Positions 6,049-62,831 of a stretch of 64,000 nucleotides of DNA are shown piece after piece. A program made the translations under genes and the position numbers. This DNA comes from Eledone cirrhosa (Eukaryota): NCBI GenBank assembly GCA_964016885.1, contig OZ024742.1:208196001-208260000 (forward strand), in the 5' to 3' direction. Position 1 is the first letter of the stretch. Every line of letters begins with the position of its first letter. A model generated the notes under the pieces. That model did not search any database. It was not told the DNA's origin and was given only the letters and a program-made list of their open reading frames with translations.

Positions 6049-6051
<3 letters not shown>

Positions 6052-10737: not shown

Positions 10738-10772
10738 GTGGTCTTTCCCATCTTTTCCACTCTATTTTAAAC

Positions 10773-14444: not shown

Positions 14445-14446
<2 letters not shown>

Positions 14447-21442: not shown

Positions 21443-21782
21443 CTATGAGAATTTTGGTAAAATTTATGTGCAGTTTTCTTCAAACTTCTATTTTGTACCT
21501 AATTCCGTGTAGTTAACTATTTGCCTAGTCAATTTCTACAGGCTAAAAGAAATAATTAGATAAGTGTTATATGGCTGTACATCGCGGAAAATAATCTGTA
21601 TTATTTGTCTATTATTTCTTCATAACTACATTTTAAACGTATAGCCTCGTTTAAATGATTTTTTATGTGGTTGATTTATACTGATTAGGAGAGGAAATAC
21701 TGTATATATTTTATCTAATGGTTCTTTGGACTTACATTTATATATATATATATATATTTATACATACATACACAAATGTCAA

Positions 21783-29060: not shown

Positions 29061-29449
29061 ATAGGCAAAGTTATAAAGTATTGTACATAAAATAACTTAA
29101 ATAATAGAGTTTAGGGAATAGAACTTGGTAGCGGTAACTGATCACTTTCTTCTGTCCATAGGTAGAGTTTAGCGAAGTACCTAAGCTATTATTTATTTGT
29201 ATGTATGTATGTACATATATGTATTCTGTATGTATAGTGTATGTACATGTATATGTATATGTATTTGTACATATATGTGTTCTGTATGTACATGTATGTA
29301 TATATACATATACATATACTATACATATATGTACATACATACCAATGTGTCCGTGTATATTTATATATATATATGTGTGTACATATATATATAAGTATAT
29401 TTATATATATATATATGTGTACATATATATATAAAATATATATACATAT

Positions 29450-30202
29450 ATATAAGTATGTACACGTACATACATATATGTATACAGACGTACAGTATTA
29501 TGTATATATATATACATACATGCACACATATATATATGTACGTATGAATTTACCGAACATTTATTATAATGCTCGGTGTGTTTGTAAACAAACATCACGA
29601 ATTAAGCCGTACAGTGTTTAGCAACCATCGTTGCCCTTTTGTTCAACACTGACAAAGGAACGATGTACTAGTCTCAAGCTTATTAGCTATCGTATACCTT
29701 CCGTATACCTTCCTGTCAGCTTATTGAACGTCTGAAAGTATATACTTTCCTTATGCATATTAAAGGCTGAGCAGCCCAATTTGCATATCGAGTGAGTTAA
29801 TGGGCCGGGCGTACTAAGAGTGCGAAATGAAATTTCGTTTCATTGTTTACGTTTATCGTTTTCGGTGCGCCCGGCCGATTAACTCATTCGATATGCAAAT
29901 TAGGCTGCTCAGCTGTTAATATGCATAAGGAAAGTATATACTTTCTGACCTTCAATCATCTGGCAGGTTCGTATACGATGCTCACGATAGCTAATAAGCT
30001 TGAAACTAATACGATGGTTGCTAAACACTGTACGGTTTAATTCGGGATGTCTGTTTACAAACACACCGAGCATTATAATAAATGTTCGGTAAATCCATAC
30101 ATACATATATATATATATATATATGTGTGCATGTATGTATATATATATACATACAACTGTACGTCTGTATACATATATGTATGTACGTGTACATACTTAT
30201 AT
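29450..30202. repeat. Large imperfect palindrome (arms ~340-365 bp)
   Basis: TTTACCGAACATTTATTATAATGCTCGGTGTGTTTGTAAAC (~29549) recurs reversed at ~30053-30093. The flanking microsatellite is mirrored too. Confidence 0.9.
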
Positions 30203-30330
30203 TTAAGTAACGGCCGTACTAAGTGTGAGAAATGAAATTTCGTTTCATTTTTCCGTCTATATATATATATATACACACACACACATAGATACATTATTAT
30301 GTATATACATATATGTATGTGTATGCATAC

Positions 30331-30427
<97 letters not shown>

Positions 30428-32278
30428 GTACTTGTCTGAGTGCGTGTGTGTAAGTACACATCACGTTCACACAAGCAAATACATTGCTCGTTTATCATAT
30501 TTATTTTCTTTTCATTTCCTTTATTTTTATTTCATTTGTGTTTTTATTTCGTTTTTGTTTTCTCTTTTCGTATCCGGGAACAAGAATAATCTCGGTAACA
30601 TTTCTTAGAGCATCGCTTTATATAACCGTCATCCATATCTATGATCGGCGTAGCATACATATTTATTTTCTACCTATCAGCCTGCTAACTTGCAGCTTTC
30701 TTTGTTTATCAGACTCAATATATTCGTTCGTGTGTCCAGTTCTATTCTGTTTCTTCGATGCTTTCGAAAAAGACAGAAATAGAAAGGAATGACAAAAGAA
30801 AGAAAATACGTCGGAAGAGATGAAGACACGAAAAACCTGATGCTAGGAGAGAAGTTATTGTAGAGAACAGCGAATGACATTAATGCTGTTAAATAAAACA
30901 TTTACAGAAGGATTATTTATATGTGTGATGTCGGCAACGATGTTTTAGTGTTTATACGGGTTTTCGTAAAGCTGCCAAGAGTATTTGATATATTTGTGTT
31001 TTTATTGGAATCTTTGAGATTATTGCCAAAATATTCGACCTGTTTGATACATTCAGCTTGTTTCTGGCTTTATTTAATCCGAATTCACATGTTAAATATC
31101 TGTGTTATTTCATATTGCACTCTGCCCTCGTCCTCTCACTTGTCTGTTTTATAGCCGGTATTATTGCTCTTGTCGTTTTTATTGTGGATGTTGTCATCAC
31201 TGTCGTCGTTGTTGAATGCTGTTACTCGAAATCAGAAGGATATTATACAACACGGCGTCGCAGCTTAAAGACAGTACAGCGCCGCACATACATCCAATAT
31301 CCTCTAAGCAGCTAGTTGTAGGTCAAGGTCAATTGAAGGTTAAGGCGATTCGACCCTTCATCTAAGTCTTCAATTCTTCTATTTGATAATCAAGCGTTGG
31401 GTGACATGACTGTTCCATTTGCCTATCTTTTGCAAACACTCCGCTTTACTTAGATCTTTATTGCCTCTGGAGAAATCATAGCATTAAAACCGCCTTTTTT
31501 TTTCATTTTACTAATCTTGATATTTCATACCAAAGCGAGTAACAAACAACATGAGAAGTTTCGATATAGCGATATCAATTTAGAATCTTACTTGGAAATG
31601 TTTATTCTTAGTTCGTTATTACTGCGGCGAAGCTTCATAGACGTTGTTTTTCACGTTTATTAAAAAAATCCTATTGATCGTATCAATTCATGAATGCAGC
31701 AAAAAGAACGAGTCACCGAAGGTGTCTCTTGGTAGTTGTTCGGCATGGTGGAACAATAAAATCACTTTCAAATGAAACCTTATTTTCTAAATAAAAGGAC
31801 GTATTGGTTATTGAATTCCTAAATAAATAATGCCAGAAGTAAAGTGAGACGCCACGGTTTGGAATTTTCTTCAAACGATAAAGACTTGATACATTTATGA
31901 ATCACATCCTGTCGCTTTACGGACTACAAAAGCAGCAGCGGCAGCAATTGTAGCAGCAGGAATATATCTCTATATTACTAAAAGTCTGTGATTGCTTGCT
32001 TGCTTGTCTGCAATGCAATACAGCCCAAAGGGCGCTTAATGGGAAAATACTTTGAAAAGAAGTTGACCCTGAAATGGAAATACAAATGGAATAAAACAAG
32101 TTTGGCGTAAATCGAAGCCCGGATTCCCCAGATATGAGGTTTTCTGGTTACCTTCATAAACAGAGAAAGAGAAGGATAGATAAAAAGAGATAGTGGTTGC
32201 GAGAGAGTAGATTGAAAGAGACACATAGAGAGATGGAGAGTAGACAGAGAAAGAGAATGGAAGAGAGAGAGCTGTGTG

Positions 32279-34608: not shown

Positions 34609-35231
34609 ACCACTACTACTACTACTATCATACACATAATCACCGTTATCTTTATTGACTTTATTAACCCGAGATTATAAATACTATGTATTTATATTCC
34701 AGCCAGGAAAGCTGGAGTCAAAATGATTAGATTGATATATATAAAGAGACACGTCAAAAATGACCTCAATGGATGGATACTAGTACACGAATTATATAAC
34801 AACTCTTGCTATTCAGTCAATTTTGTAGCCAAGGAAACCATACGCATGATGAATCGATAATTTTACATATAGAGATAGGAAATCAAGACGAACATGTTAA
34901 TATTGCTGACCTCAGCTCCAGACTGTTCAAGACTGTAGGAGCGATTTGTGTTTTTAGTCATCGCATATATTATTGTTGTTTATAGGTTTTACATGTTTAT
35001 ATACATAAATTCCCACTGTCCCTGTCTATTGCATTGTCCCTGTATGTAGCCCCTCGTGATTATTATTATTATTTTTATTATTATTATTATTATTATTATT
35101 AGTAGTAGTAGTAGTAGTTTTAGTATTAGTATTGGTAGTAGTAGCATTAGTAATACTCGTATTGTTTTTAATATTTTAATATTATCTTGTAATATATACG
35201 TATATATATACATAAACACACATACACACAT

Positions 35232-35648: not shown

Positions 35649-38600
35649 TATATACAGTAATAATAAATACAAAGAGACCAATATATATAAGAGATGTGAC
35701 TCAATTATTTGATAGCACGGCAATTACACAAACAAATTTTATATAGAAGTCCAGAAAAGACAAGCCGAATAACTATGCTGCAATAAAACCAACATATATA
35801 CCAAAAACTTAACAGATTCAAAATATTTGAAACCAGTTTATGTAACATACTGTAACAGTGATAATAGTCGAGATTGCATAATAGGAAAGAATATTATCCG
35901 TTTTTGACATCCGTTTTAAGACGTAATATTGCGATGTCAGAGCATTTGGATGTTAATATCTACTTTGTCATCAGGCATACAATCCGGTATATATTATATA
36001 GCCATAAACTCTAATTGTGTATAAATTTACACACACACACACACACACACAGACTCACACACACATTAACACACAAAAACAACAGCAAATATAAGAGGAT
36101 TAATTGTGTATGTATTTGATTCTGTGTCTGTGTATGTACTGTATGTGAGAGAAATGCGTATATGCAAACGTATGATTAACTTAGGAGAGGAAATTATAAA
36201 AATGGAGAAATATTGATTGAAAGACAAAATATATATTATTTTTAAAATCAGTCTGAAGCGTTTAAGGCAATATAACCGGTTTTTGTATCTGTTTGTAGTC
36301 TCACAAAGTTTAGAAAATAGTATATCATAGCTGTTATATAGCGCATTTGACCAGGGAGCCTCACTCCTTCGAACTCTCGTTTATGAAAGTACGTAATATA
36401 TATCAGATAGTCTGACCAGTTTAATTGTACGGTAATAAACTAAACATTTCAATCTAAATGATATAGTTTATATCAATACTTGTTTCCAATCTCACTAAAG
36501 GAACTAAAATGAGAGTTGGTGTTAAAGATATATCATATGCTTTGGTTATGAACTAATCTTTCAAGTGAATAAGTTGAAATTTACTTTCTATATTAAACTT
36601 TTATCCTTTCAAAGCGACTAAGGAAACATATGTGCCTCCCTCTTCTCTTTTGAAGATTTTCAATTTCATAAACATAAGTAAGTTTGTATTTAAATGTCTT
36701 AGACGACACCCCTAAAAGGGTCATCGAATTGATTCGCAAAGATTCACTCATCAACACCAGCAGTTGCATATATATTTGTTGTTGCTACAGCTTACAGCTG
36801 CTTAGGTTTTTCCGGCCTTCTACGAAACTGTATCTCATAGAAGGTATGACGCTTCTTTTATTGATATGGGCCCCACTACTATCATATCAAGATTTTTCCG
36901 ATGATAAGAATCGGAAGGGATATCACAAGGCCAACGCTCTAACAGTTTCACCGATCCACCGACCTAGACTGCTAGTGTATTTAACAACCCCAAAAGGAAG
37001 AAAAGAAAAGTTAACACCAGGAATCCTCTCTACCGCTACCTCAACAACCTATTCTCCTCTGAATCAACTAGATTCATATCATTTCAATTAGAGGACTCTT
37101 GCTGTTTCATCAACTAAATTCCACGATGAACAAGTAAATTATTAAAATTTTATTGAACGGATTTTAACCGGAAATATAAAATCTACAAAGAAATGCAGGG
37201 TAACAGCCCAACACCATCGGTAATCACCATCATTTTAATTAATGTAATATTTTCTTCCTGAATCTGTACACTTTTCTTTACATATGGCTTCCTGCATCGA
37301 TCTCACAAATTCTGAAGGACGTTTCAAATTAATGTGATATGTTGCGCGTTTCTGATAAAATTATAAGGAAAGAAAAGAAAAAAGTCAAGTGAAAACCAAA
37401 TTTAGGTTTGTAAATAGGATCCGTATGATTTGGAGAATATTTCACCATTCTCAAGTTCCAAAGATATTTCATATCTTTATTTTCTTTTATATAGTGTTTA
37501 TACCGGTATCAGTTCTTTGTTTAAATATAAGGCTATAGCTTTGTTTAAAACTATCCGTGTGTGTTACTTGTTTATATATTTAGATGTTAACTTGGATATA
37601 ATATGTAGCATTGATCTTGATCTTCTTGCTTGTTTGTTAGTACATTTTTTTCTGTATTTTCGAATCAGGAGGAAGTGAGTACAATATGTTTATTCATTTT
37701 CTGGAATGTCTCCATACGAGTGCCACTAAGATTTTATGTTTGATATCATTCTGGAGTTATGTTCTAGTTATTTTCTCTCTAAATGTGGATGTTATCATCG
37801 AAACGACTTAGTGTCAAGTGACTGATTGATGACAATAACAACAATAATTGCAACAAACATTTACATACAGTACTCCCACCACCAAACCACCATTATCAAC
37901 CTACTCCTCTCCTCCCCCTTCTCATCCCCCTCCTCCTCATGCTACTACTACTACCACTACTACTACCACTACTACTACTACTACTACTACTGCTACTTCA
38001 GTAATATATAGTTATAAGTGTGGGTGGTGTTATAGGCTACAAACGCTATTACAATAAAAGTGTTTATTTAAGAAATAACAACAAAGCAGAAGTCAAAGTA
38101 TATTGCATTAGATAGTTTTATTTTTCGAATGCGAAAGCAGAGAATAATGACGATGACGGTTCTATCTGGCTGCTCGACCTATTAGAAATATGTCATAAAT
38201 TCCTTTCAAATCACCCCACTACATATTAGATGAAGACACAATTGACAATATCATCAAGGGCTCTCTAAAAATAGGAGAAAGACTGATTACACAATCAGGA
38301 TTAATTTTGGTCTAAACAACATCAGCAACGATAAATACATCAGTGCACAACATGGTAGCAAATTACAACTTTCTTTTATACAAATCCATATATCCATTAT
38401 TTTGAATTTTCAGACACCATAGAAGCAAACATTGAAATACTGCAAATCTAAGGCTGTGAGACAACCGAACTACTATTATCGAGATGGATTCTACCGAGTC
38501 ATTAGACTTGCTAGAGATAACAACTAAATTTTCCTCAAATTCCTCCAAGCAAATGGGTTATGGTTCAGGTAAGGGCTATGATTAGTGGTTAGAATTGGGG

Positions 38601-39519: not shown

Positions 39520-40276
39520 ATCGCGGTACTATCTACCTATGAGGCATGATGTAGTTGCCAAAACACAGTACAATGCAATTCGTAAAAAAGATAGCCCCGA
39601 TAAAAACACATTAAAAGCTACAGCAATGTGGAAGACATTCATGTACATAATATGAAAGAGTACTGGTGGAATGTTCCAGTAAAAACCCCAATAAAATGCA
39701 GGCATAACAGACCAGATATTATGATATGGAGCAGGGAGAAGAAGACATGCACAGTAGCGGAAATTAGCTGACCAGCAGATGCCAATATAATATCAAAGAT
39801 TAGTGAAAAGGAGAATATTTATGCAGAACTGATGAGAAATCTGCAGATACTCCACCCTGATTACACCTTCAGATTTATGCCTGTGATTATTGGGGCCCTG
39901 GGGTATGTTAGTAACTGCCTCAATACAAATCTTGAGAAGCTAGGCTTCACAGGAACAGAAAGAACACAACTAGTTAGGAAATTACAAGTACAATCCATTA
40001 ATGGAGCAGTAAAAAATATGTAAGACATTCCCAAAATTTTGCAATTTATAACTGCATATAGACATATACAGATGCAAAGCATATACACATGCTCACATAC
40101 AACTCAAAACATACACATCCACACATACAATAACATCCATATCCACACATGCATGCATACATACATACTTATCTAGTTGATGTTGTGTAAATTCCAATGA
40201 GAGAGTCTTGTGTCTATGTTAGAAACCGACTCTCGCTCTATTGGTAAAACTTCATTAAATTATAAAACTAGAAGAA
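39520..40276 (+). mobile_element. RLE (R4/NeSL-type) element 3' fragment, family D3 copy 1, in (CATA)n
   Basis: YYLPMRHD, HNRPDI, KENIYAELMRNL..PVIIGALG. Ends AGAAGAA then CATA. Confidence 0.88.
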
Positions 40277-40290
40277 CATAGATACATACA

Positions 40291-40898
40291 TGGTGGCTGC
40301 CAACTCGTTTTCGAGTACGGCCACTACTTTATATCCATGTAGGAGAACCCCTACCGATGCGCTGAACGAGTGTGACTTTTTAGTCCAGCCAGCGACTTGA
40401 AAACTCTGGTACAAACACTACACTTGTGACAATTACTGACACATAGTGCTGGGCCCATGGTACCATGTGACGACAAGTGCACAGAGATCTCCAGATATAA
40501 ACCAATGCCTGTGCCGTGAAGCTTTTATAGTGAGCAAAGGCACTGCACAAAGCCAGTCCCACTCTCTTAACCAAAATGATATTCACCAAAAAAAAGAACA
40601 AGTCAACATAATTGGATACCATCAGGGTTGCAGGTGTTATATCAGAGTTTTCCTTCTCCTAGAATTCTGCCTTGACAAAGGCTAAGGGGTCATCTCTCTC
40701 GGTGGTTTTGTATGGCCATTGAGTCTTAAGAGCTATTTTGCACTTTGACAGGTTTTGCTTTTAGTCCTGCAGGATGTCCAAAGTCATCCTCCTCACCAAA
40801 AAACCTTGGTGGAGTTGCCAGTTTAGTCACCAACGACCCGACCATGAGACAGATTGTACTGGGATACATGTTACCAGTAGCAGCAACTGGTGACCTGG
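40291..40898 (-). mobile_element. ~610-bp non-coding RTE-derived non-autonomous element, copy 1
   Basis: Reverse complement of 40810-40898 matches the 5' start of the RTE at 21783. A near-identical copy lies at 43316-43922. CATA repeats on both sides. Confidence 0.72.
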
Positions 40899-41014: not shown

Positions 41015-42430
41015 AAGAAAGATTCAGTCATCGGAACTCTCTGCGCAAAACAAAACAGTGGCTCACAATGTGTTTGCTGTGCCTGTCCTAACACCAACGT
41101 TTGGAATACTCAATTGGACGATAGACGAAATACAAGCATGTGATGTTAAAACTCGAAAAATCTTAAACAACACCGGAAACTTTCACATCGTATGTGACAT
41201 AGACCGCCTTTACTTGAAACGTAAGCGTAGGTGCCCGTCTCTCCAGCAAGTCTATCTGCATGAAATAGATAAGATCATGAGAGTTAGGAAGGAACTCCTC
41301 GGGAGATATTCCCTGTGTGATAATCAAAATCGCACACCCAGGGAAGTCGTTCAGCAGTATCGCAGTGAATCCATGGGTTAAAAACTGCATGCATATCAGC
41401 AAAAAATCATGCATGGATATGTTGACAGGAAGACCCAGAGTGAAAATAATATAGATAAGGAAAGTAGTCTATCTTGGACCAACAACCGCTATATTGGCTC
41501 CCACTTCGAAGGATACGCTTTTAAAATCCAAGTACAGGAAATTAACATCTGTCTCAAAAGAGATATGGATGCAGACAAAACACCTAGATGTGATAACAAG
41601 TACAGACTCTGAAGAATTAACATCGAAGATGTCATCTATGTCATCAGCAGCTGCCCAAAGATGCCATCGCGGTACTATCTACCTATGAGGCATGATGTAG
41701 TGGCCCAAACACTGTACAATGCAATCCGTAGAAAAGATAGCCCCGATAGTAAACACATTAAAATCTACAGCAATGTGGAAGACATCCATGTACATAATAT
41801 GAAAGAGTACTGGTGGAATGTTCCAGTAAAAACCCCAATAAAATGCAGGCATCACAGACCAGATGATATCATATGGGACAAGGAAAAAAGCATGCACAGT
41901 AGTGGAAATTAGCTGCCCAGCAAATGCCAATATAATAGCAAAGATTAGCGAAAAGGAAAATATTTATGCAGAACTGATGAGAAATCTGCAGATACTCCAC
42001 CCTGATTACACCTTCAGATTTATGCCTGTGATTATTGGGGCACTGGGGTATGTTAGTAACTGCTTCAATACAAATCTTGAGAAGCTGGGATTCACAGAAA
42101 CAGAAAGAACACAACTAGTTAGGAAATTACAAGTACAATCCATTAATGGAACAGTAAAAATATGTAAAACATTCCAAATATTGTGCATCTAATAATTGCA
42201 TATACACATTTACTGATACAAAGCCTATACATATGCACACATACAACTCAAACATACACATACACACATACGATAACATCCATATCTACACATGCACACA
42301 TGCAGTCATGCATACATAATCTACCTGGTTGATGCTGTGTAAATTCCAATGAGAGCGTCCTGTGTCTATGTTAGAAACCGACTCTCTCTCTCTATTGGTA
42401 AAACTTTGTGAAATTATAAAACCAGAAGAA
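41015..42430 (+). mobile_element. RLE element family D3 copy 2 (longest, 5'-truncated, degraded)
   Basis: AHNVFAVPVLTPTFGILNWT..DVKTRKIL..DIDRLYLKR, RHD, RPD, VVEISCP. Same 3' end as copies 1 and 3. Confidence 0.9.
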
Positions 42431-42577
42431 CATACATACATAAATACATACATACATGCATACATAAATACATACACACACACACATTCATGCATACATA
42501 CATGCTTAAATACATACATGCTTATATACATACATGCTTAAATAAATAGATCCATACATACAAACATATATGACGAT

Positions 42578-43011
42578 GGCTGCCCCCTCGTAATCTAGTA
42601 TAGCAATTGCCCGATATAACATTTGCCTTTCATCCTTACGGGGTCGATAAAATAAAGTACCAGTAATGTACTGGGTAATTTGCTGGTCTTGTGCCAATAG
42701 TAGAAACAATTATTGATACCTATCAAGTAATACTATCGTGCAATGCCTGTGCGAATATTTCTTTTTAAACTGATGAAAGACTGTGCACTGAGCCAATCCC
42801 ACTCTCTGAGCGACACCAGCTATAACCCGAAATGAAGAAAAGATAAACATCGTCGGTAACTACTGAGCTGCAGGTTTTATATCGGAGTTATCCCAGTTTC
42901 CTAAGTTGCCTTACCCTTGAAGAATGCCCGGACAAGGGTTAGCGGCTCTTCACTCCTAGTAGATTAACCGCGCGATCGGGTATCCAGCCGGATAATTTCC
43001 ATGGCTCCGTG
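42578..43011 (-). mobile_element. Diverged relative of the RTE-derived element, interrupted by a SINE 3' half (42622-42710, +)
   Basis: TGGCTGCC..CTCGT end, plus GCAATGCCTGTGC, CCCACTCTC and TGCAGGTTTTATATC blocks shared with 40291-40898. Confidence 0.6.
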
Positions 43012-43300: not shown

Positions 43301-43315
43301 ACATACATACATACA

Positions 43316-43922
43316 TGGTGGCTGCCAACTCGTTTTCGAGTACGGCCACTACTTTATATCCATGTAGGAGAACCCCTACCGATGCGCTGAACGAGTGTGA
43401 CATTTTAGTCCAGCCAGCGACTTGAAAACTCTGGTACAAATACTACACCTGTGACAATTATTGACACATAATGCTGGGCGCATGGTACCATGTGACGACA
43501 AGTGCACAGAGATCTCCAGATATAAAGCAATGCCTGTGCCGTGAAGCTTTTATAGTGAGCAAAGGAACTGCACAAAGCCAGTCCCTCTCTCTTAACCAAG
43601 GTGATATTTACTAAAAAGAAGAACAAGTCAACATCATTGGATACCATCAGGGTTGCAGGTTTTATATCAGAGTTTTCCTTCTCCTAGAATTCTGCCTTGA
43701 CAAGGCTAAGGGGTCATCTCTCCCGGTGATTTTGGATGGCCATTGACTCTTAAGAGCTCCTTTGCCCTTTGACAGGTTTCGTTTTTAATCCTACAGGATG
43801 TCCAAAGTCACCCTCCTCACCAAGAAACCTTGGTGGGGTTGCCAGTTTAGTCGCCAACGACCCGACTATGAGACAGGTTGTCCTGGTATACATGTTACCA
43901 ATAGCACCAATTGGTGACCTGA
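43316..43922 (-). mobile_element. RTE-derived non-autonomous element, copy 2
   Basis: Colinear with 40291-40898. CATA flanks. Confidence 0.75.
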
Positions 43923-44007
43923 CATACATACATGCATACATACATACATACATACATACATACATACATACATACATACATACATACATACATACATACA
44001 TACATAC

Positions 44008-44477
44008 AAAGATTAGCGAAAAGGAGAATATTTATGCAGAACTGGTAAGAAATCTGCAGATACTCCACCCTGATTACACCTCCAGATGTATGCCTATGCT
44101 TATTGGGGCACTGGGGTATGTTAGTAACTGCCTCAATACAAATCTTGAGAAGCTAGGCTTCACAGGAACAGTAATACCACAACTAGTTAGGGAATTAGAA
44201 GTACAATCCATTAATGGGACATTAAAAATATGTAAAACGTTCCAAAAAGGTTGCATCTAATAACTGCATATACACATGTACCGATACAAAGCATGCACAC
44301 ATACAACTCAAAACATCCACATCCACACATACAATAACATCCACATCTACACATGCATGCATACATAATCTACCTAGTTGATTTTATGTAAATTCCAATG
44401 AGAGAGTCTTGTGTCTATGTTAGAAACCGACTCGCTCTCTATAGGCAAAAATTTGTGAAATTATAAAACCAGAAGAA
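44008..44477 (+). mobile_element. RLE element family D3 copy 3 (short 3' fragment)
   Basis: KISEKENIYAELVRNL...KICKTF*, with the same 3'UTR. Starts inside (CATA)n. Confidence 0.88.
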
Positions 44478-44904
44478 CATACAAACATACGTACATGTAT
44501 ATATGAGAATGTATACATGTCTTTACTACTTCTCGTCTATCGGAGCTATCTCTGTCTAAATGAACCATAAATGTCACTTCAAATCGGTAGGGATGTACTT
44601 GAGTTTCTTAAGGCGGAGTACGTGATAATAAATAACCAGTGTTTCTTGTGACTATCTTCTGAAGCATCATGGACATTCCTGGAATTGGCAAGGAAAGCAG
44701 AATTACAAACCATTTAATAGTATCATAAAACTGAAAATTCGTAAAATACATTGTTTGACGCATTTCTCAAATATAAGGAGGCAACTGTCAAAGTACAACA
44801 ATAATAATAATAATATATACAATGTAGTATTTTTATTCATATTCATTGGCATAATGCTGATCTTATTACCATTGGAGTATTTAATTGACTCTCTATAAAG
44901 TTAT

Positions 44905-45395: not shown

Positions 45396-46426
45396 GTTTC
45401 ACTTAGATTATACATATTCCTTATTGCGTTTATGTTTAGCACTTGATTTTGAGCAGCTATTAATAAACTTATTGTCTGTCGTAAGATCACATTTTATCAA
45501 CCAATTCAAGGAATACGACGACGATGGCAAAATGTTAATGTCGATAGAGCGACGTAGATAATCTTGAGGTGTGTATTCCAGTTTGCTGCTAATGTCTTTG
45601 TTTTGACTTATTATTTCATAAAATAATACACAAGTCAATGGAGGAGGCTTGGAGGAATTGCCAAGGGGTAGGTCGTGATGTTTGGCTGTTTTCTTTTCGG
45701 CAATTTGTGTGCCGCATTTTTATTTCCACTAGAGATGCAAATCCCAAGATGCTCAGGGTCAAGTCACGATCACGGAACAATATCTTTCCATGAAACTACA
45801 TGGGTGGAAGACGATTGTGCCCCTCTCTTACTGTTGTCGAACGATGATAATGTCATGCAGCAAACATATAGAGTGCATAATACCACCGCCTATATGCTAC
45901 AAAAACACGTGACAGATTACACAGAGATACAGAAGCAAGTCTGTCTCATAGAGTTTCCCAAGCTCCAAAACATATACAGCAAAGTAACTGAATGCAACAA
46001 TATAAGCAATGGAAGCATATATGAATTCTATAGAAGAATCCTGTTATGCCTAATTGTGAAGTTACCACCAGAGAGCTAACTGTAATGGGCAATTTAGTTT
46101 GAAGGCTTTGTCAACTGTTACATCACAAAGTCTATGAAGGATTACCAATTACTGATATTTTATCCGGCTGGAAGAGACTCTATGCTCTTGGCCACTTACA
46201 ACAATATTTACAATTCGAAATAATTGAGACAAAATGTTAAGCAAAAAAAAAAAGCCCTCTAAAAATTGTAACACTCTCATGGTGGTAAGAGAGTAGAGCT
46301 TGTATCATATCAAAGTTTCCACCGTCATCAAATAAATTGCTTTGAAAATGTTGACTACCTCTTCATATTGTAATCAATCATCATGTGTGTGAAGAAGCGG
46401 GTAACAAGCATTATTTGATAAGTATT

Positions 46427-46610
46427 GGCGGTGGATTGGCAGTATCGGTAGAGGGTCGGACGCCATGCTTTCCAGCATAGTTACGTCCCTTTACGATCTG
46501 AGTTCAAATCCCGCCGAGGTTGACTTTGCCTTTCATCCTTACGGGGTCGATAAAATAAAGTACCAGTAATGCACTGGGTAATTGCTGGCTTTGTGCCTAA
46601 AGTAGAAACA
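46427..46610 (+). mobile_element. Full-length tRNA-headed SINE with a 17-bp target-site duplication
   Basis: ATTATTTGATAAGTATT at 46410-46426 and 46611-46627. A/B-box-like motifs. Core GCCTTTCATCCTTACGGGGTCGATAAAATAAAGTACCAG. Confidence 0.95.
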
Positions 46611-47144
46611 ATTATTTGATAAGTATTTGAAGAAATTTTACTTCAATTTTGTTGAAATTACATTTCTCCAATCAGACATTATGTAAACATCTATACAAGA
46701 TGTTTCTCTACGTCATTTTAACCTTCCTTGTTCTTCAATAAATTTCTTGCTATATTTTCTTCTCACAAATATGTTTTTCCAGATAAAATCTAGATATCAA
46801 TTTATTGGAAATCGGTCGTGATGGATAGCTTTAGTTATTGCTATATAAACAACTCTTTCTTGCATTATATAAAAGGTGGAGATGGCGAATTGCTCTCTAA
46901 TTTAAGTGTTTCAAATTATTAGTCATGGCCTTTTCATTTTCCTGTATTTGGAGGACAAATATTTGTGAGGATAAGGTCAGAAATACTTTTTCTTTTTTAA
47001 GAAAATAAAAATAATAATTCTGTCTATGAAGTATTATATAGAGAAGTTGATAATAAAGACTACAAACTTATTTCAAAAAGTTTCAATTGAAATAAATTCT
47101 AGATTAAACTACATATAATATCAAAAATAATATTCTTCGCTCAT

Positions 47145-48882: not shown

Positions 48883-49254
48883 TTGTTGTTTCTGTTTGCG
48901 CATGCGTTGGTGTGCGTGTTTTTGTTTGGTCTATGTTCGTATCTGAGTCTGTATGTTATGTCATTCTATCTTTGGTCACTAGTATGTGTTTACGTGTGGG
49001 TGTTGTTTTTGTGTCTGTGTATATCTATTTATATTTATCTTAGATCACTATTGTGTGTATGTGTATGGTTGTCATTATTCTTATTGTATGACAAATAGAT
49101 GATATTTACCTGATAAACTAACATATTCAATACAATAATAAGCAGGGGTTTTAAAGTTTCAATATTCGAATATTATAATTATTCATGTAACAAAGCATAA
49201 ACGTATCCAGATTTAAATGCTACGGCGTAGAATACTACTCCTGACTAGAAGGCA

Positions 49255-49440
49255 ATCGTTTGGAAAGAAAGGGGAAAGTTAATGAAACCAACCTCAGTGT
49301 GTTTCTGGTACTTTATGTTATCGAGCCCTTATGGATAAAAGTCAAATCTGACCATGGCGGTATTTTAACTCAGAACGTAAAATGTCGTAACAATATGCTA
49401 CAAAGCATGTTGTCCGATGCCTTAACGACACTGCCATTCC
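49255..49440 (-). mobile_element. Degenerate SINE
   Basis: CTGGTACTTTATGTTATCGA...ACTCAGAACG...AAAGCATG blocks. Confidence 0.65.
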
Positions 49441-50553
49441 ACAACTCTGAAAAGATTTCCACTATAATAAGGACTATTTCTGTAGATATAATCTAAGCTA
49501 GTATCTTGAACAAGTGCTAAAGAAGTAGGTAGCAGTTATTCATAGACAATTATAGTGTGAAAACAATGATTTCAAAGTATGACTAATTGAATCTTTTGTT
49601 CCCACCAACTAGCTTCATACATCTATATATAGCACATATAGTTCTCTATAATTGCAGCTAAAATGAGTTTCTCTTCAACCTGTCAATGATTTCTGAAAGG
49701 AATCAAAGAGAAGGTTACATGTCATTTCCACATATATATTCTCATCAAGTGAATTCGATTAACTCTCTCAATACTTTATCTATATTTAACATTCGAAGTA
49801 TTCTTTCGTATATGAATATACAGCGAGAGAAAAAAATATCAAGATCTAGATCTGTCTGTCACTTTACATAACTTGGTAAACTTTCTACTATTTCTTCTCC
49901 CCATCCCTACTCCGCTTCCTTATTATTAGAATCGTCATATTTATCATCATCACTCATAACATCAATTTAGTATATGATTTCTCTGCGGCCTTCAGCGAAG
50001 CTTGTAAGATAGATTTGAGAATAACTATATATGTGTTTAATAAATGAATTTATACTTAGTTTAATTTAAAAGAAATTTCTTAAAAGTTCAACAAAGTTTC
50101 TGCTAAATCTTCGAAATGTTCAGACAATTAATATATAAGTATATTTTTCCGCGCGTATATTAGCTACTTTAATAAAGGGAACTCGATACAACCAGCAATG
50201 AAAATTGAACTACAAACTAGATTGACTGGCTATTCACAGATACTATGGCATAGATGTTTTATATATAAACACACATAGCTGCACATTTACAACATTCATT
50301 TATTGCATACACACACATATCGCTTTCTTTTACAAGTTTCAGCCATTGGACAGCAAATAAGCTGGGATACTGTCTTCATGGGATTTTTACTCTAGCACAT
50401 CGGCACCCGTACCCGTTTGCGTCTTTGAGACTGATACTTATTTTATAGGTCTATATTATTTTAATTACAAACATTTGAGTTTCGCCCAACAACGGTATCA
50501 TACGAATTAACATTAAAATTAGGCACGAAACATGGATGGACACATAAACGCGC

Positions 50554-52914: not shown

Positions 52915-54145
52915 TTAGTTCTTAGTTCTTCCAGTCCCTTGTGGAACATTGGGCGACGAGCTTCCTCCACTTGATCCTGTCACTGGCGGCCTTTCTAGCA
53001 CCTCTCCAGGTAATTCCCATCTCCAGCAGGTCCTCCCTGAATGTGCTCCGCCATGTTTTTCGTGGTCTTCCCCGTTCTCTCCTGCCACCTTCTGGTACCC
53101 AATCCATGGCAATATGAGCAGGTCGATCTGTCGGCAAACGAAGGATGTGGCCCGCGAACCGCCGTCTCCTTTTCCGGACAATGTCCCTTAACCTCTCCAA
53201 TCCTGACCTCCTCATCACTTCCTCGTTGCTAACATGGTCTCTCCATGAAATGTTGAATATGGTCCAAATGCAATGATGGTGGAATACTCTTCCATGTCTC
53301 ACAGGCATATATCGCTGTTGGTACTACAATGGACATGTAAACACGGAATTTGACGGCGTTGCCGATGGAACACCTGGACCATACCGGACGGAGTCCCTGG
53401 AAGACCGCCGCTGCTTTTCCCAGCCTTGTGCGCACATCCACCTCAACATCCCATCGTCAGATCATGTTGCTATCAGTGCCAAGGAAGGTATTCTGCACAG
53501 TTATCCTGAACCAGCTAAGTGCAGATATAGATCGTCATCTCCGAGACGAACAGGCTGGCTTCCGCAGTGGAATGTCTTTTTCAGAGCAGATCTTCACTCT
53601 CCGAAATATCATTGAACAATGTCGAGAGTTCCACAAGTCCCTTGTTGTCAACTACATTGACTTCAGGAAAGCTTTCGACAGTGTTCATCGGGAGTCATTG
53701 TGGAAGATTGTAAGACTCTACGGTGTCCCAGGGAAATATATTAACACCTTCAGGTCGCTGTACCGACATTCCAGGTGCTGCGTTACGACAAAGGACGGAA
53801 ACACGGAAATGTTTGACATCTTGACGGGTGTTCGACAAGGCTGCATCCTTTCGCCTTTCCTTTTCCTCATTGTCATCGATTTTATCATGAAGAAGAAAAT
53901 GAGTGACCCTCGTTTTGGCATCAGTTGGGATGGAAGGAGATTAAGCGACCTGGACTTTGCCGATGACATTGCAGTGATAGGCCATTCCCAAGAAGACCTG
54001 CAAGAGATGACAAACGTTATAATTGGCAATGCAGAGAAAGTTGGCCTGCGCATCAGTTGTGAAAAAACCAAGACCGTGTCGACAGGTGACCCTCCAAATC
54101 CCCCTCTCATGGTTGGTCAGCGTAACATTGAATGTATAAACCATT

Positions 54146-54150
<5 letters not shown>
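52912..54150 (-). mobile_element. RTE-clade element with 5' inversion (3' part 52912-53455 on -, RT core 53460-54150 on +) inside (TA)n
   Basis: Minus strand: RTRLGKA..YACETW..RFAGHILR..RGRPRKTW with an (AAGAACT)n tail. Plus strand: EQAGFRSG, DFRKAFDSV, GVRQGCILSP, DFADD. Confidence 0.92.
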
Positions 54151-54443: not shown

Positions 54444-54682
54444 ATGGATCCCAGACAATATTAATATACGTCTGGATTGGTCATCAGACAGAGATGTTAT
54501 GGATAAAAAATATGAAATGAGATTTAAAATCTGTTAAAAATTGGAAGTGAGGCTGGAAAAAAAACATTTCCAGCCTCACTTCCAATTTTTAACAGATTTT
54601 AAATCTCATTTCATATTTTTTATCCATAACATCTCTCTCTGATGACCAATGCAGACGTATATTAATATTGTCTGGGATCCAT
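54444..54682. repeat. Near-perfect palindrome (arms ~115 bp, loop under 10 nt)
   Basis: ATGGATCCCAGACAATATT...GGCTGGAAA pairs with TTTCCAGCC...AATATTGTCTGGGATCCAT. Confidence 0.95.
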
Positions 54683-54884: not shown

Positions 54885-55029
54885 TGTTTCTACTTTAGGC
54901 ACAAGGCCAGCAAATTACCCAGTGCATTACTCGTACTTTATTTTATCGACCCCGTAAGGATGAAAGGCAAAGTCAACCTCGGCGGGATTTGAACTCAGAT
55001 GTTAAAGGGACGTAACTATGCTGGAAAGC

Positions 55030-55091
<62 letters not shown>

Positions 55092-55629
55092 CGTTTCTTT
55101 TTGCACAAGGCCAGCAATTATCCCAGTGTATTACTAGTACTTTATTTTATCGACCCCGTAAAGATGAAAGGCGAAGTCAACCTCGGTGGGATTTGAAATC
55201 AGATGGTAAAGGGACGTAACTATGCTGAAAAGCATAATAATAATAATAATAATAATAATAATTGTTTCTACTCTTTGCACAAGGCCAGCAATTATCCCAG
55301 TCTATTACTAGTACTTTATTTTATCGACACCGTAAGGATGAAAAGCAAAGTTAACCTCGGCGGGATTTGAATTCAGAATGGCAAGGGCCGTAACTCTATG
55401 CGTCAAAGTATGGCGTCCTACCCTCTACCAATACTGCCAATCCAATAATAATTGTTTCTACTTTTGGCACAAGGCCAGCAATTGCCATTACTGGTACTTT
55501 ATTTTATCGACCCCGTAAGGATGAAAGGCAAAGTTAACCTCAGCTGGATTTGAACTCAGATCATAAAGAGATAACGTAATTTTATTCTTCAAATGATGGT
55601 GTCCGACTCTCTACCGATACTGCCAATCC
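54885..55629 (-). mobile_element. Array of four SINE copies (54885-55031, 55092-55234, 55263-55444, 55453-55629) separated by (AAT)n
   Basis: Four reverse-complement matches to the 46427 SINE. The first two are 5'-truncated at the same point. Confidence 0.93.
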
Positions 55630-55640
55630 AATAATAATAA

Positions 55641-56825
55641 TAGTAGGAATGTCATAAGTGCAGTAAATTCCCGAGCTGTGTCTATTATTAGGTACAGTAC
55701 GAATTCGGAAATTGAATGTTGCTGAACAAAAAGAAATCGATAGGAAGACTAGGAAGCTATTGACTATCTACAACATGTTCCACAGGAGGAGTGATGTTGA
55801 TAGACTCTACTTAAGGATATCTGAAGGTGGAAGAGATCTTATCAGCATAGAGGACTGTGTTCAGATGGGGAAAAACACCATGTACAAATATGTGGCTGAT
55901 AGTAGGGAGCCAATGCTCAAAATCGTACTGAAGGAGAAGACAGTAGACCAGGGGAGGTGCAAGGAGGAAATAACAACAAGGAAGAAGAGCAACCTTCATG
56001 AAAAATCCCTTCGTAGCACTATCTTTAAGAAAACAGAATTTAGATAGCCACAGACATGGAACCGGTTAAAAAGAGGAGACCTTAAAAAAGCTACAAAAGG
56101 AATGGTAATGGCTGCGCAAGAGCAAGCTCTAAGAACGAAGTGGGTGAAAAACCATATTGACAAGAAGCAGGCTAGCTCACTGTGTAGGATCTGTGAAGGG
56201 AGAGAGGAGACTGTGGCTCACATTGTATCCGAGTGTAAACACCTAGCCCAGACTCACTATAAAGGCTGGAGACATGATGTGATGGGCAGGGTGATCCGCT
56301 GGAATCTATGCAAAGTAAACAATTTACCACATTCTGAGTGGTATGAGCATAAGCCAGAGTAGGTGATAGAAAACGATCAGGTGAAGGTGCTATGGGATAT
56401 GAGGATACAGGCGGACAAGAAATTAGAACGCAATAGGCTACACCTGGTGATTTTGGACAAGGAAAAAGATCGTGGTAGATTGTAGATGTAGCCTGCCCAT
56501 TTGACACGAGAGTGCAAGAAAAGGAGAGGGAGAAAATTAACCGATACCAGGATTTAAATTGGGAGTTTAAAAGGATTTGGAACTGCCATGAAATCAAGGT
56601 CGTCCCGATTGTCATAGGCGCACTAGGCACTACCTCAAAGAGTTTCCAATGACGGTTAAAGAAGATTAGTCCAGCCCCGCTTTTTGGAACACTTCAAAAG
56701 GCATGCTTACTGGGAACAGCAAGAACCCTCCGATATGTCCTGAATGTCTGAGGCTGCAGGTAGCGGCTTGATATTCATTTCAACAAACATTTCAGTTAAA
56801 TAACATCAATGACTGAGATTCAAAG
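55641..56825 (+). mobile_element. R4/Dong-like family D2, second 5'-truncated copy
   Basis: Colinear with the reverse complement of ~6962-8160. (AAT)n at both ends. Confidence 0.92.
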
Positions 56826-56834
56826 AATAATAAC

Positions 56835-56874
<40 letters not shown>

Positions 56875-57119
56875 TTTTCTTTATTAACCACAAGGGTTCA
56901 CATAAAGTAGACATTAAGGACAGTACAGGACAATACAGGACGGTACAAATGGGCATTTCTGCGTGTAAAAAAAACAGAGGTTGAAATAAAATAACAAAGA
57001 AAAAAATTCCCCAATAGGGGGGAGACTTCCAAGGGACATTTGTGGAGAAAGCCCATTAAAAGACCACAGTGGCCCTGACCACCAGGGCAAGTGCCATCTC
57101 CCAGTTTTCCACCTTTAAT

Positions 57120-60100
57120 TTACAGACACATACTCAGAGAAGGCCCATTCATTCGGGCCATACTTGCTTCTCTCACCCATCTTTCAACAAAATGCTGGGA
57201 AGAGAGCACTTCCCTCTCTACCCTGATTTTCCTTTTCAAATGAAATTTGAAAAAGTTAATCAGGGCATCACCGAAGAGGTAAGTGCTCGTCTTCAGCCCT
57301 TTCAAACGTGTCCACCATACTATCTCTTTCGCCATGGCCACCAGACAGATAAAAACTGCCTGCCCTTCCAGGCTAAAGGAAGGGGGCGGGGCAATCCTCA
57401 CGATGGACTCAGCTGATAGCTGGATAGGTCCTACACGTGACAGCAGGTGTTCGACATAAACCCACAAGTCAGCAATGCTCGGACACTGGACGAGTGCGTG
57501 CAGGACGGTTTCGTCGCCCTGCGCGCATCTCGGACATGCCCGGCTGACGGCACCTCCATGCCTGTAGAGTTTATCCCGAACTGGCAAAGCTCCTCGGTAG
57601 CACTGCCAGGCCAGGGATTTCTGGAAGTTGTCCATAGGCCCCGGCCCGAAAGTCCTTCCGAAGAGATTGGCTAGTTGATTTTCGTCGACGCCTAGAGTTT
57701 CTCCAAGTACGTCGTCGTTCTTCCCCTCCACTAATCCCCTATAGAACGCCAAGGTGGAGTTTCCACCGATCACATTGCCCGATTGGTCGAGGGCTGTGAG
57801 CGCCTGATGACATTCCAGCCTCCAAGCGCTCCCTCTCGGTCTTCGCTTGACCCAGGACTGCAGCTCCGTCAAGGAGACGAGCTGGGGAAAAACGTGTCTT
57901 GCAAACGGCGACCACACCTGATCACCGTCGAGGAAGAGGTGGAGATGTCGTAGCCTCAGCGCGTGTCTGCGCATCATCAGCCACGGCATGCCCAGCCCTC
58001 CACGTAGCGGGTGTTGACAGCAGATGGACCGCCTGACCATCGGAGCGCGTCCCTTCCACAAGAAGCGAAAGAGCAAACGCTCAAGCGCAGTCAGGCGGAG
58101 CTTAGGGCAAGGTACGACGGTCAGGCGGTAGTAGATGACGGATGCGATGTACGCATTCGCCACCTCCGCTCGACCTTTCAGGGATAGCTTCCTCTCGGCC
58201 CATTTCTGGGTGAGAGAAGCCACCCTGCTCGTCACCTCGTCCCAGTTTTTGTCCGTCTGGAGGTCTGGACCGAACCAGACCCCTAGCAATTTAACCGGTC
58301 CGTCCGTCCAGCGCCCGACGACGCTGTTGGACGGCATGGACCTGCCTCTCCAGGTGCCGAGCTGCAGGCCCACTGACTTTTCCTGGTTGATCATTGCTCC
58401 TGTCACCGCTTCGTATTCTCTTAGTGTAGTGCCGATCGCCTCGATGTGTTTGGCGTTCGACACCACTACGGTGACATCGTCGGCATATGCTGACACGGAT
58501 CTTCCGCATCCTAGTTGGCGCGGGACCCCCCTCAACGTCTCCAGTTTGTGCAGTAATGGCTCGAGAGTCAATACGTACAATAGGGACGAGAGGGGACATC
58601 CTTGGCGGACCGAGCGCATGATGTTGAACGGTTCCGAAAGGTGACCGTTCACTCTCACTACAGAGCAGATGTCGCTGTGCATGGCAGCGATCCAGCCTCT
58701 GAAGACGGGCCCAAAGCCAGCCGCCCTCAGGACTGCCGTTAGGTAACGATGGTCGACCCTATCGAAGGCTTTCGACTGATCTAAATTGATCAAAGACCCA
58801 CCCGTGCCAGGTTCCCTAGCTACCCTCTCTACGATGTATCGCATGAGGTGGAGGTTGTCGTGGATGGATCTGTCGGGAATGGCGCATGTCTGTGCCTCTC
58901 CCACCAGACCACCACCGACAAGCGCCAACCTCTTTGCTAGCCACTTGGCCAAAATCTTGAACTCTGTGTTTAGCAGAGTTATGGGCCTAAAATTATCTAT
59001 GTTATCCCCCTTGTTCGGATCCTTTCTCAGCAGCGCCACCGCTCCCCGGCTCACAGAGCTGGGAATTTTCCCGTTCTGTTGCCAGTTGCAGTAGACGTCC
59101 GCCAAGAGGCCTCCGAACAAGTTTGGCATTTGTTCGTAAAGTTCATAGGGCAGACCATCCAAACAAGGCGATTTACCCCTTGTGCAACTAGTCATTGCAT
59201 CCCGTACTTCAGCGGTTGTTATCGGCTTTTCGCAACACTCCGCCTCAGTGGCCGAAAGCCGCGGCAGTCCGTCGAGGTAGACACTAAAGTCCATCCCTCG
59301 GTCCGGCCCGCCACTGCCCCCGAACAGTTGAGCGAAGTGTCGCTGAAAAGCTTCACACATTTTCCCGGGATCGAGTAGCATGCGCCCGTCGTGGTCAACC
59401 AAAGACCGGATCATGGCTTTGTTGCCACGACGCGCCTCCGCCACTCGGGCCCATTGAACGGCTTTCGTCCCCTCGTGTCTGAGAGCACGCACCCTAGCTC
59501 TGACAACGCGGCCTTCGTGCTTTGCATTGAAGAATTGGTCAAGGGCCAATTTCGCCGCAAGTACGTCGGTCGCGATGCCTTTGCTAAGCGCCTCATCTAA
59601 TTTTCTAACTAATTCTCCCTCTGCTCTATTTTTCTCTATTGCTAAAGTCTTACTAAACCTAATGGACTCTATTCTAATTGCTCTTTTCAGAGCAAACCAC
59701 CACTTGTTGTTGACGATGGCCCCCGTCAACGCCCGCTTAACTAGTTCGCTAATCCGGTCTCTGTAGGCCTTGCGCGCTGGTAAGGACGCGTTTAACTTCC
59801 AGTAGCCGGGTCCTCGTCTATGAAGCCTATCTAAGTCAAGCACACAGATCACGAATTTGTGGTCCGTGTAGCTGACTATCTTGAATTGTGGACAGCCTAT
59901 GCTAGACCTATCTATTTCCCTACAAAATACTCTATCTAGATATGATCTGGATGACCCTATGCGATTTGTCCAAGTCCACATTGGTACATTCGGGAAATCC
60001 ATTCGGTACCTGTCAGACAGTTCAAAACGTCTGAGCAGGTTGGTGAGACTCTTGCACCCTCCTTCCCTATCCACTAATCCCACACAATCCCAGCGTGCAT

Positions 60101-60539
60101 CTAAGATCCCGTTCCAGTCGCCCACTAACACTAAAGAGCGGGACGTTCCAAGAAAGGTCTCCAGACGCCGGAAGAAATCAGGCCGCCCTGCTCCTGTCGG
60201 GGCATAGACGGCCACTAACCTGAAAGCTTGCCCGTCTCCGCTGGTCACGTCCAGCACCACCAACTTATCTTCTGGGTCCAGGAAGATGGCCCGTATGGCA
60301 AGATCCAAACCTCTCCGAAAAAGCACAGCAACTCCTCCCCCCGATCCCGGACGGCTGGGAGATGCGTACACATCGTAGCCGCCGAAGATCGGTGCGAAAG
60401 CCTGTGCTTCGGAGATTCTGGTCTCGCTGATGGCCACTACATCTATGTTTAGTGACCTGAGGTCGTTGAGCAGGTGGCCCTGCTTCCATGACGACCCCAA
60501 GCCACGCGCATTTATGCTGCCTCTTCTGAGTGAGGTCAT
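57120..60539 (-). CDS. Tx1 ORF2 polyprotein, 1139 aa, uninterrupted (APE endonuclease, reverse transcriptase, zinc finger)
   Basis: SINARGL, SET, GDWN, SYLDR, TDH (APE); RQGCPLS, YADD (RT); CPRC..HALVQC. Confidence 0.96.
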   Translation of the reverse strand: MTSLRRGSINARGLGSSWKQGHLLNDLRSLNIDVVAISETRISEAQAFAPIFGGYDVYASPSRPGSGGGVAVLFRRGLDLAIRAIFLDPEDKLVVLDVTSGDGQAFRLVAVYAPTGAGRPDFFRRLETFLGTSRSLVLVGDWNGILDARWDCVGLVDREGGCKSLTNLLRRFELSDRYRMDFPNVPMWTWTNRIGSSRSYLDRVFCREIDRSSIGCPQFKIVSYTDHKFVICVLDLDRLHRRGPGYWKLNASLPARKAYRDRISELVKRALTGAIVNNKWWFALKRAIRIESIRFSKTLAIEKNRAEGELVRKLDEALSKGIATDVLAAKLALDQFFNAKHEGRVVRARVRALRHEGTKAVQWARVAEARRGNKAMIRSLVDHDGRMLLDPGKMCEAFQRHFAQLFGGSGGPDRGMDFSVYLDGLPRLSATEAECCEKPITTAEVRDAMTSCTRGKSPCLDGLPYELYEQMPNLFGGLLADVYCNWQQNGKIPSSVSRGAVALLRKDPNKGDNIDNFRPITLLNTEFKILAKWLAKRLALVGGGLVGEAQTCAIPDRSIHDNLHLMRYIVERVAREPGTGGSLINLDQSKAFDRVDHRYLTAVLRAAGFGPVFRGWIAAMHSDICSVVRVNGHLSEPFNIMRSVRQGCPLSSLLYVLTLEPLLHKLETLRGVPRQLGCGRSVSAYADDVTVVVSNAKHIEAIGTTLREYEAVTGAMINQEKSVGLQLGTWRGRSMPSNSVVGRWTDGPVKLLGVWFGPDLQTDKNWDEVTSRVASLTQKWAERKLSLKGRAEVANAYIASVIYYRLTVVPCPKLRLTALERLLFRFLWKGRAPMVRRSICCQHPLRGGLGMPWLMMRRHALRLRHLHLFLDGDQVWSPFARHVFPQLVSLTELQSWVKRRPRGSAWRLECHQALTALDQSGNVIGGNSTLAFYRGLVEGKNDDVLGETLGVDENQLANLFGRTFGPGPMDNFQKSLAWQCYRGALPVRDKLYRHGGAVSRACPRCAQGDETVLHALVQCPSIADLWVYVEHLLSRVGPIQLSAESIVRIAPPPSFSLEGQAVFICLVAMAKEIVWWTRLKGLKTSTYLFGDALINFFKFHLKRKIRVEREVLSSQHFVERWVREASMARMNGPSLSMCL

Positions 60540-60573
60540 GTTGAAAAGGAGTGGAAAAGATGGGAAAGACCAC

Positions 60574-62560: not shown

Positions 62561-62831
62561 TTTTTTTTCAAAGAAATTTTTGGTTAATAATAAAAGTTAA
62601 AATTTTGGGCACAAGGTCCCAATCTTTTTGGGTGTCCTTTTCGGAAAACAATGTATGTGTGCTTATAAACAGTTTACAATAACATTTTCCATAAATGGCA
62701 ATTTTTAAACAAACGGAAATAACAAACCTTTGCGGAGCTCACGATAATACGATTTCCTACGTAGGTCGCCAATAATAATAATAATAATAATAATAATAGT
62801 AATAAATTGAAAATATATCACTATAACCATC

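Follow-up and report, generated by a model that had tools for sequence, protein, structure and literature searches.

SINE copies and Tx1-like LINEs of the octopod Eledone cirrhosa appear to end in a common 3′-terminal sequence that carries a conserved, predicted stem-loop. Both types of element lie in a stretch of 64,000 nucleotides (GenBank assembly GCA_964016885.1, contig OZ024742.1, positions 208,196,001 to 208,260,000 of the forward strand), called the window here; their positions are given in Table 1. Since the SINE has the same predicted hairpin and the same ATT neighbourhood as these LINEs, it likely uses their enzyme. An ATT-targeting Tx1-like lineage probably recognises the SINE hairpin stringently; this lineage is perhaps not the family of LINE copy C itself. 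Literature is cited by PMC number, in each case for the part of the text that was available.

Table 1. Elements and parts of elements in the window (positions are counted from its first nucleotide)
Feature	Position	Strand	Remarks
SINE copy, 184 bp	46427-46610	+	5′ boundary also marked by loose public-read ends before 46427
TSD, 5′ copy, 17 bp	46410-46426	+	starts with ATTATT
TSD, 3′ copy	46611-46627	+	
A-box-like element	46437-46448	+	tRNA-type Pol III promoter; presumed consensus
B-box-like element	46500-46512	+	presumed consensus
Terminal stem-loop of the SINE tail	46586-46598	+	predicted; family loop CUUGU
Four head-to-tail SINE copies	54885-55632	-	(ATT)n between copies on the SINE sense strand
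Dispersed SINE copy	20558-20734	+	followed by ATTATT; TSD not clear
SINE copy, 5′-truncated	42622-42708	+	followed by ATTATT; within a diverged relative of the 620-bp repeat
Older SINE copy	16494-16665	-	83-87% to the others; 3′ flank merely ATT-like
Older copy of the long-tail SINE subfamily	15171-15290	-	GAAATC end as in LINEs A and B
LINE copy A, L1 group (likely Tx1)	620-6010	+	decayed, 74% to C; predicted stem-loop 5985-5997, then (ATT)13; 5′ boundary approximate
LINE copy B, L1 group (likely Tx1)	8429-14446	+	predicted stem-loop 14422-14434; preceded and followed by (ATT)n
LINE copy C, L1 group (likely Tx1)	56874-62770	-	predicted stem-loop 56898-56886; preceded and followed by (ATT)n
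Short end D, LINE-type 3′ UTR	17286-17329	-	44 bp; profile E 3.7e-6; SINE-type right stem arm
End E, 5′-truncated A-like LINE end	34967-35058	+	stops within the hairpin, then (ATT)n
Dong/R4-like RLE LINE fragment	55639-56826	+	(AAT)n end; different, long hairpin
Decayed RTE-like LINE	22500-24768	+	ATTATT after the end; hairpin with 6-bp stem and AUGGCC loop

The SINE copy at 46427 and its relatives

The element at 46427 is best explained as one copy of a tRNA-type SINE that is very abundant. It fits the definition of a short (100–600 bp), non-coding and dispersed element with many copies, nine of which retain a 3′ end in the window. Its head contains matches to what we take to be the consensus sequences of an A-box and a B-box. 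The head (46427–46520) is predicted to form a rod-like fold (z −3.8), and neither ARAGORN nor Rfam gave a tRNA match to it. The SINE patterns had no match in viral, metagenome or prokaryote contigs.

The copy is flanked on both sides by ATTATTTGATAAGTATT, identical at 17 of 17 positions and the longest string common to the two flanks. This bears out the perfect 17-bp TSD with an ATTATT start that the first-pass annotation had described. Its further claim, that the ATT comes from the target, holds in part: ATTATT is present in the target, but the TSD is also compatible with an ATT tail on the RNA. A clean TSD was seen in one of five dispersed SINE copies, which counts against a pairing of the SINE with Tx1-like LINEs, and none was found for the copy at 42622–42708. 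The flank of the latter was compared with the 620-bp repeat described below, to serve as an empty-site control, and was dropped, as the relative is too diverged.

Another SINE copy (49233–49442, minus strand; in the self-comparison 49295–49442) has the same head and body (77%) joined to an unrelated 3′ part and is possibly a tail-swapped subfamily with a different partner LINE. More decayed SINE pieces or tails are located at 15385–15400 (−), 545–615 (+), 36917–37018 (−) and 15028–15161 (+); one of them retains the CUUGU stem via G-U pairs.

L1-group LINEs in the window

By their protein sequences, LINE copies A–C can be assigned to the L1 group, with an APE endonuclease, a reverse transcriptase (RT) and a C-terminal zinc finger, and with L1 as closest relative. 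Pfam identified Exo_endo_phos, RVT_1 and zf-RVT in ORF2, and among solved structures human L1 ORF2p was closest (E 2e-49, residues 8–855), compared with 1e-18 for R2. The nearest named relatives of ORF2 come from Argonauta hians, with 72% identity over the RT region and 57% in another search. Copies B and C are 95% identical. ORF2 of copy C (57120–60539) is open and encodes 1139 aa with the complete APE-RT-zinc finger order, and its ORF1 is interrupted; in copy B it is ORF2 that is interrupted.

The ORF1 of copies B and C contains a CX2CX4HX4C motif, the CCHC knuckle, and its atlas neighbours are CCHC/ZCCHC3-RBD clusters (0.91–0.93); a search of ORF1 for Transposase_22 gave no match. In animals other than mammals, an ORF1 of the CCHC type agrees with membership of the Tx1 clade (PMC5203782). 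None of three protein searches returned a match named Tx1, so that membership of this clade, which is suggested by ORF1 type and target, is likely, whereas the assignment to the L1 group is firmer.

An (ATT)n run directly follows copies A, B, C and end E and also precedes B and C, while end D lies outside an ATT array (thus four of five ends). As A, B, C and E abut such runs, B and C even on both sides, these LINEs insert into ATT runs.

All three LINE copies contain a hairpin shortly upstream of the ORF1 start (715–742, +; 8568–8595, +; 62622–62604, −), with 12-bp stems in A and B. The corresponding loop region of copy C resembles the SINE tail at 17 of 25 positions; this look-alike in the 5′ UTR is at chance level for the window and was set aside.

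A common 3′ tail of SINE and LINEs

The SINE and LINE ends quoted in the first-pass annotation are all present (SINE tails at 55453 on the minus strand and at 42685–42708, LINE A at 6010, LINE B at 14446). Each of them abuts ATT on the sense strand of the element, so the SINE does have the polarity of the Tx1-like LINEs, as had been stated. The claimed resemblance of the tails also held, and lies above chance: local alignment of the SINE tails at 55630, 55031 and 15288 with the ends of LINEs A–C gave shuffle p values of 0.006–0.087, below 0.05 in seven of the nine comparisons. The identity is modest, 13–16 of the last 25 bases, and the common stretch comprises only about 25 nt.

A closer match was found in end D. 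The same three SINE tails gave shuffle p values of 0.002–0.004 with it, and its 19 of 25 identical bases make it the top non-SINE match among 128,000 positions of the window. End D was also recovered by a profile for which only LINE ends (A, B, C and E) were used (E 3.7e-6). It combines upstream sequence of the LINE type with a right stem arm of the SINE type, and its left arm pairs at two of four positions. This composition suggests a further LINE family that is nearer to the SINE than A–C. The family of copy C may not be the partner, given that D fits the SINE better and that ORF1 of C is interrupted.

A composite motif occurred 13 times in the window versus 0.43 times in 60 shuffles. This count is circular, because the motif was drawn from these same ends, and it is not used as support. 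Among 67 metagenome loci of distant L1-group relatives (best segments 19–48% identical), none had the hairpin motif near the LINE end, and one unrelated motif match was found in their 268,827 bases. The motif is therefore lineage-specific at best.

The predicted stem-loop

SINE and LINE ends have in common a predicted 4-bp stem with a CUUGU loop, 9–10 bases ahead of GAAA and the ATT junction, with an A-rich spacer in between. The stem arms differ between the lineages (GGCC/GGCC in A, AACC/GGTT in B and C, TGGC/GCCA in the SINE), and among 12 aligned ends three of the four pairs change on both sides between A, B/C and the SINE (G-C/A-U/U-A; G-C/A-U; C-G/G-C). Pairing was found in 80.9% of 47 cells, as opposed to 23–53% for slid controls on the same 12 ends. 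The covariation score was reached by 0 of 500 shuffles, and the count of doubly changed pairs by 169 of 500. RNAalifold, unprompted, predicted the same inner three pairs with a weak energy of −1.17 kcal/mol. In single-sequence folding the hairpin is the minimum free energy structure in A, B and C and in some of the SINE copies only. As the structure was read from these very sequences and just three lineages contribute, the covariation supports the stem-loop and does not prove it; B and C, moreover, are 95% identical. Pairing that is kept through double changes suggests ongoing selection on the structure in each of the three lineages.

End E is without the right hairpin arm and yet sits in ATT; later deletion or internal priming may explain this. 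This end has a bearing on another reading of the data, in which the tail does derive from a Tx1-like LINE, but either the partner is an older or unseen D-type family, with A–C sharing only ancestry and target, or the RNA is recognised loosely and the match is historical. The better fit of D than of A–C, stems of the SINE and of B/C that differ at three of four pairs, and the fact that E inserted or survives without a full hairpin would all agree with this. The double changes speak against it, since they point to selection on the pairing, and we regard it as improbable. It overlaps with our preferred reading in the clade and differs in family and stringency.

ATT junctions and tandem SINE copies

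ATTAT follows seven of the nine SINE copies with a 3′ end, compared with a background of 0.32% per position. Of the 14 ATT/AAT arrays in the window, 11 abut the end of a SINE, a Tx1-like or a Dong-like element. Read on the sense strand of the element, the array is always ATT for SINE and Tx1-like LINEs and AAT for Dong-like LINEs. Five arrays (6011–6049, 6926–6961, 8384–8428, 55630–55641 and 56826–56873) are shared hubs, where Tx1-like LINEs or SINEs (ATT) stand back to back with Dong/R4-like LINEs (AAT).

Public RAD reads from four of the six listed runs were mapped to a 1.5-kb stretch around the SINE. In two runs, approximately 2% of the reads fell on this stretch (253,257 of 12,467,656 and 238,418 of 12,785,554), and the SINE received most of them. 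Three AATT sites, which were taken as the library cut site, show an accumulation of read ends; one of the sites consists of the end of the SINE and the following ATT. Of the plus-strand reads that cover 46590, 8546 of 12565 and 8733 of 11937 stop at 46613. These data show that ATT follows the majority of the sampled SINE copies, with a read-end peak that is biased by the library cut site. Loose read ends before 46427 are T/A-rich (agreement 0.44–0.46), and those behind 46578 belong to the abundant long-tail SINE subfamily.

Fifteen of 800 joints were listed. Among these, 13 run from 46614–46617 into nine different SINE starts on the same strand, and none is an empty-site joint. The listed joints are tandem SINE copies in the same orientation, linked through ATT. 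Contig pieces of two haplotype patterns both run into the SINE, and hence no insertion polymorphism was seen. In public contigs, a full copy is preceded by a duplicate of the initial ~40 bases of the head (46427–46467); two array copies of the window break off at this point too (about 46465).

Alternatively, the ATT might be just a repeat tail that belongs to the SINE, without preference for a target, and the arrays might have arisen by DNA duplication as in SINE-derived satellites. Two pairs of copies in the window array do have identical 5′ junctions, and SINE-derived tandem arrays are known in reptiles (PMC10702118). However, ATT is present on the 5′ side too, in the TSD at 46410 and in all four array copies; the similarity among the array copies (84–91%) does not exceed their similarity to dispersed copies (up to 97%); and the joints, as far as listed, use nine different 5′ starts. 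Such an origin of the ATT and of the arrays is highly improbable.

Other LINE types as possible partners

A comparison with the tails of other LINEs had been proposed in the first-pass annotation. Nine ends from this one window were tested (three Dong-like, three ACAT-flanked RLE and three RTE ends); they scored 7–14 of 25 against the SINE tail, well below end D, and their folds differ. This part of the comparison favours the Tx1-like LINEs, but for the flagged copy taken by itself the end of an ACAT-flanked RLE LINE (p = 0.028) outscores LINEs A–C (shuffle p ~0.13). The flagged copy differs from its family in the loop and the outer stem pair, and it has a T at 46590, where C is found in 90–96% of public reads.

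The main rival is the RTE-like LINE that ends at 24768, because the TSD starts of RTE-driven SINEs track the 3′ repeat (PMC6007223). The SINE would then be moved by an RTE family whose 3′ repeat is of the ATT type, the ATT would reflect microsatellite-tail pairing in the RTE style, and the likeness to Tx1-like LINEs would be chance or an old relic. This end reads GGCA followed by ATTATT, with the same ATT polarity as the SINE; among the LINEs of O. vulgaris, RTE forms the largest group (PMC13282606, supplement); and the T-rich loose ends upstream of the SINE fit the upstream T stretch of RTE insertions (PMC6007223). The match itself (12–14 of 25) has a shuffle p of 0.16–0.42, stem and loop are different, the other two RTE ends score 10–11 of 25, and both the covarying CUUGU stem-loop and end D would be left unexplained, which makes this partner unlikely.

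A Dong/R4-type LINE with a restriction-like endonuclease would be a second candidate, as Dong elements are TAA-microsatellite specialists, also in a snail (PMC3812793), and Dong-like fragments flank the SINE array. All three Dong-like ends, however, have AAT on the sense strand, opposite to the SINE, and score 7–11 of 25 (p 0.3–1.0). The ACAT-flanked RLE ends reach 11–12 of 25. Their 3′ UTR contains a look-alike of the SINE tail at 16 of 25 bases, but it is internal, ~50 nt upstream of the end, has a different fold, and belongs to a family found in ACAT, not ATT; nine window positions reach 16 of 25, so this similarity is near chance. We consider it very unlikely that an RLE LINE moves the SINE.

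The ACAT-flanked family has three ends in the window (39520–40277, 41020–42429 and 44007–44478), each followed by (ACAT)n. It encodes CCHC and PD..E-like motifs with a weak match to Dong-like proteins, and is likely an R4-like family that targets ACAT microsatellites. A 620-bp non-coding repeat (40280–40898 and 43310–43925, 94% between copies) has (ACAT)n on both sides, with a diverged relative at 42570–43010 and a fragment at 21780–21940; possibly, it is a non-autonomous partner of this LINE.

A possible route of SINE mobilisation

The first-pass annotation had proposed a target-biased Tx1/SINE pair. The pair is retained as the best explanation by way of the covarying stem-loop, end D and the SINE-ATT-SINE joints, but the Tx1 label is held less firmly. 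In such a pair, Pol III would transcribe the SINE RNA, and ORF2p would bind its stem-loop in trans instead of a poly(A) tail, which would amount to stringent recognition. Where an ATT(ATT) run begins on its left side, the APE endonuclease of ORF2 would nick the AAT strand, and target-primed reverse transcription would start at the nick, probably helped by pairing with a short AUU stretch in which the RNA may end. The TSD would result from another nick at a distance of about 17 bp. As the ATT start would be duplicated at each insertion, fresh landing sites would arise beside old copies and tandem arrays would grow. Instead of A, B or C, the driver may be a sister family whose end is of the D type.

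A wider reading is possible, although we hold it to be somewhat short of an even chance. The octopus SINE explosion may have been driven by an animal L1-group (Tx1) lineage that retained stringent RNA recognition, which would use a CUUGU stem-loop of 13 bases in place of poly(A) and insert only at ATT runs, and LINE and SINE would build their own landing pads, seeding ATT microsatellites and tandem SINE arrays. If true, this would be the first animal pair of a tRNA-type SINE and a Tx1 LINE with a common structured tail. A Tx1-like LINE that has a covarying 3′ stem-loop in common with the SINE would provide an animal test case for stringent RNA recognition as the ancestral state in the L1 group. 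It would also identify what powered a major expansion of repeats in cephalopods, and make a very small RNA signal, together with a microsatellite-directed endonuclease, available for study.

Comparison with known SINEs and LINEs

The tRNA-derived octopus SINEs OR1 and OR2 were reportedly described by Ohshima and Okada in 1994. OR1 and OR2 have been cited as CORE-SINEs (PMC4824008, PMC4758252), and octopus annotations contain tRNA-CORE and tRNA-Deu SINE classes (PMC8967140, PMC13282606). Like the SINE studied here, these are very abundant octopod SINEs of the tRNA type, and the available texts name no partner LINE for them. The present family may well be one already described, such as OR1 or OR2. 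In O. vulgaris, SINEs account for 11.7% of the assembly, most of them unclassified (PMC13282606), and octopus annotations contain L1-Tx1 families and abundant SINEs, unpaired in the text available (PMC13282606, PMC8967140). SINE partners in bivalves are CR1, CR1-Zenon, L2 and Nimb (PMC11481361, PMC4824008, PMC4758252), and the Ceph-SINEs of squid are RTE-related (PMC5786205).

Microsatellite targeting and SINE mobilisation have been published for Tx1 families (PMC4494074). The first-pass statement that Tx1 partners are rarely reported is right in that such pairing is seldom reported, but a Tx1-driven SINE has a precedent in the crocodilian SINEU and Tx1-Mar (Kojima 2015, PMC4494074), where, as here, a SINE and a Tx1 LINE have a common target preference. 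Tandem insertions of SINEU-3 sandwich the target duplication in the manner of the SINE-ATT-SINE joints (PMC4494074). SINEU elements differ in their snRNA heads and Mariner target, compared with a tRNA-type head and ATT repeats here, and for SINEU-1 no LINE with the same 3′ end was found (PMC4494074), whereas the predicted 3′ stem-loop described here is common to both partners. Kibi and Koshi are likewise APE-type Tx1 LINEs that insert into microsatellites with fixed polarity, but their targets are TC and TTC in fish, as opposed to ATT in an octopod, and the parts of the papers available mention no partner SINE (PMC4494074, PMC3812793). Dong (R4 clade) lands in the same class of microsatellite, and Dong-like copies share arrays with the elements studied here, but its restriction-like endonuclease, opposite polarity and unrelated tail set it apart from the Tx1-like LINEs and the SINE (PMC3812793).

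A common 3′ end of an L1-group LINE and a tRNA-type SINE is also known from ZmSINE2/3 and LINE1-1_ZM (maize and sorghum) and from SINEX-3_CR and L1-1_CR in Chlamydomonas (Ohshima 2013, PMC3747384). The hairpin of the monocot pair has compensatory changes and a conserved loop, as seems to be the case here (PMC3747384). In these plant and algal pairs, however, about 50–80 nt are shared, the loop is another one and the ends are poly(A) or poly(T), in contrast to ~25 nt in an animal, and no microsatellite target comparable to ATT is reported in the available text (PMC3747384). Table 1 of that paper contains no Tx1 pair and no mollusc pair (PMC3747384). The literature searches brought up neither an octopus SINE for which a Tx1 partner was reported nor an ATT-targeting Tx1; Repbase, SINEBase and subscription papers, which lay outside the search, may record it.

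Further repeats in the window

The window is repeat-dense animal DNA. MITE-like palindromic elements with long terminal inverted repeats are located at 15581–15944, 20865–21116, 54444–54682 and 29211–30431. An RTE-like insertion at 52920–54150 has its 3′ end on the minus strand and its RT part on the plus strand; the 5′ segment is inverted, as twin priming would produce.
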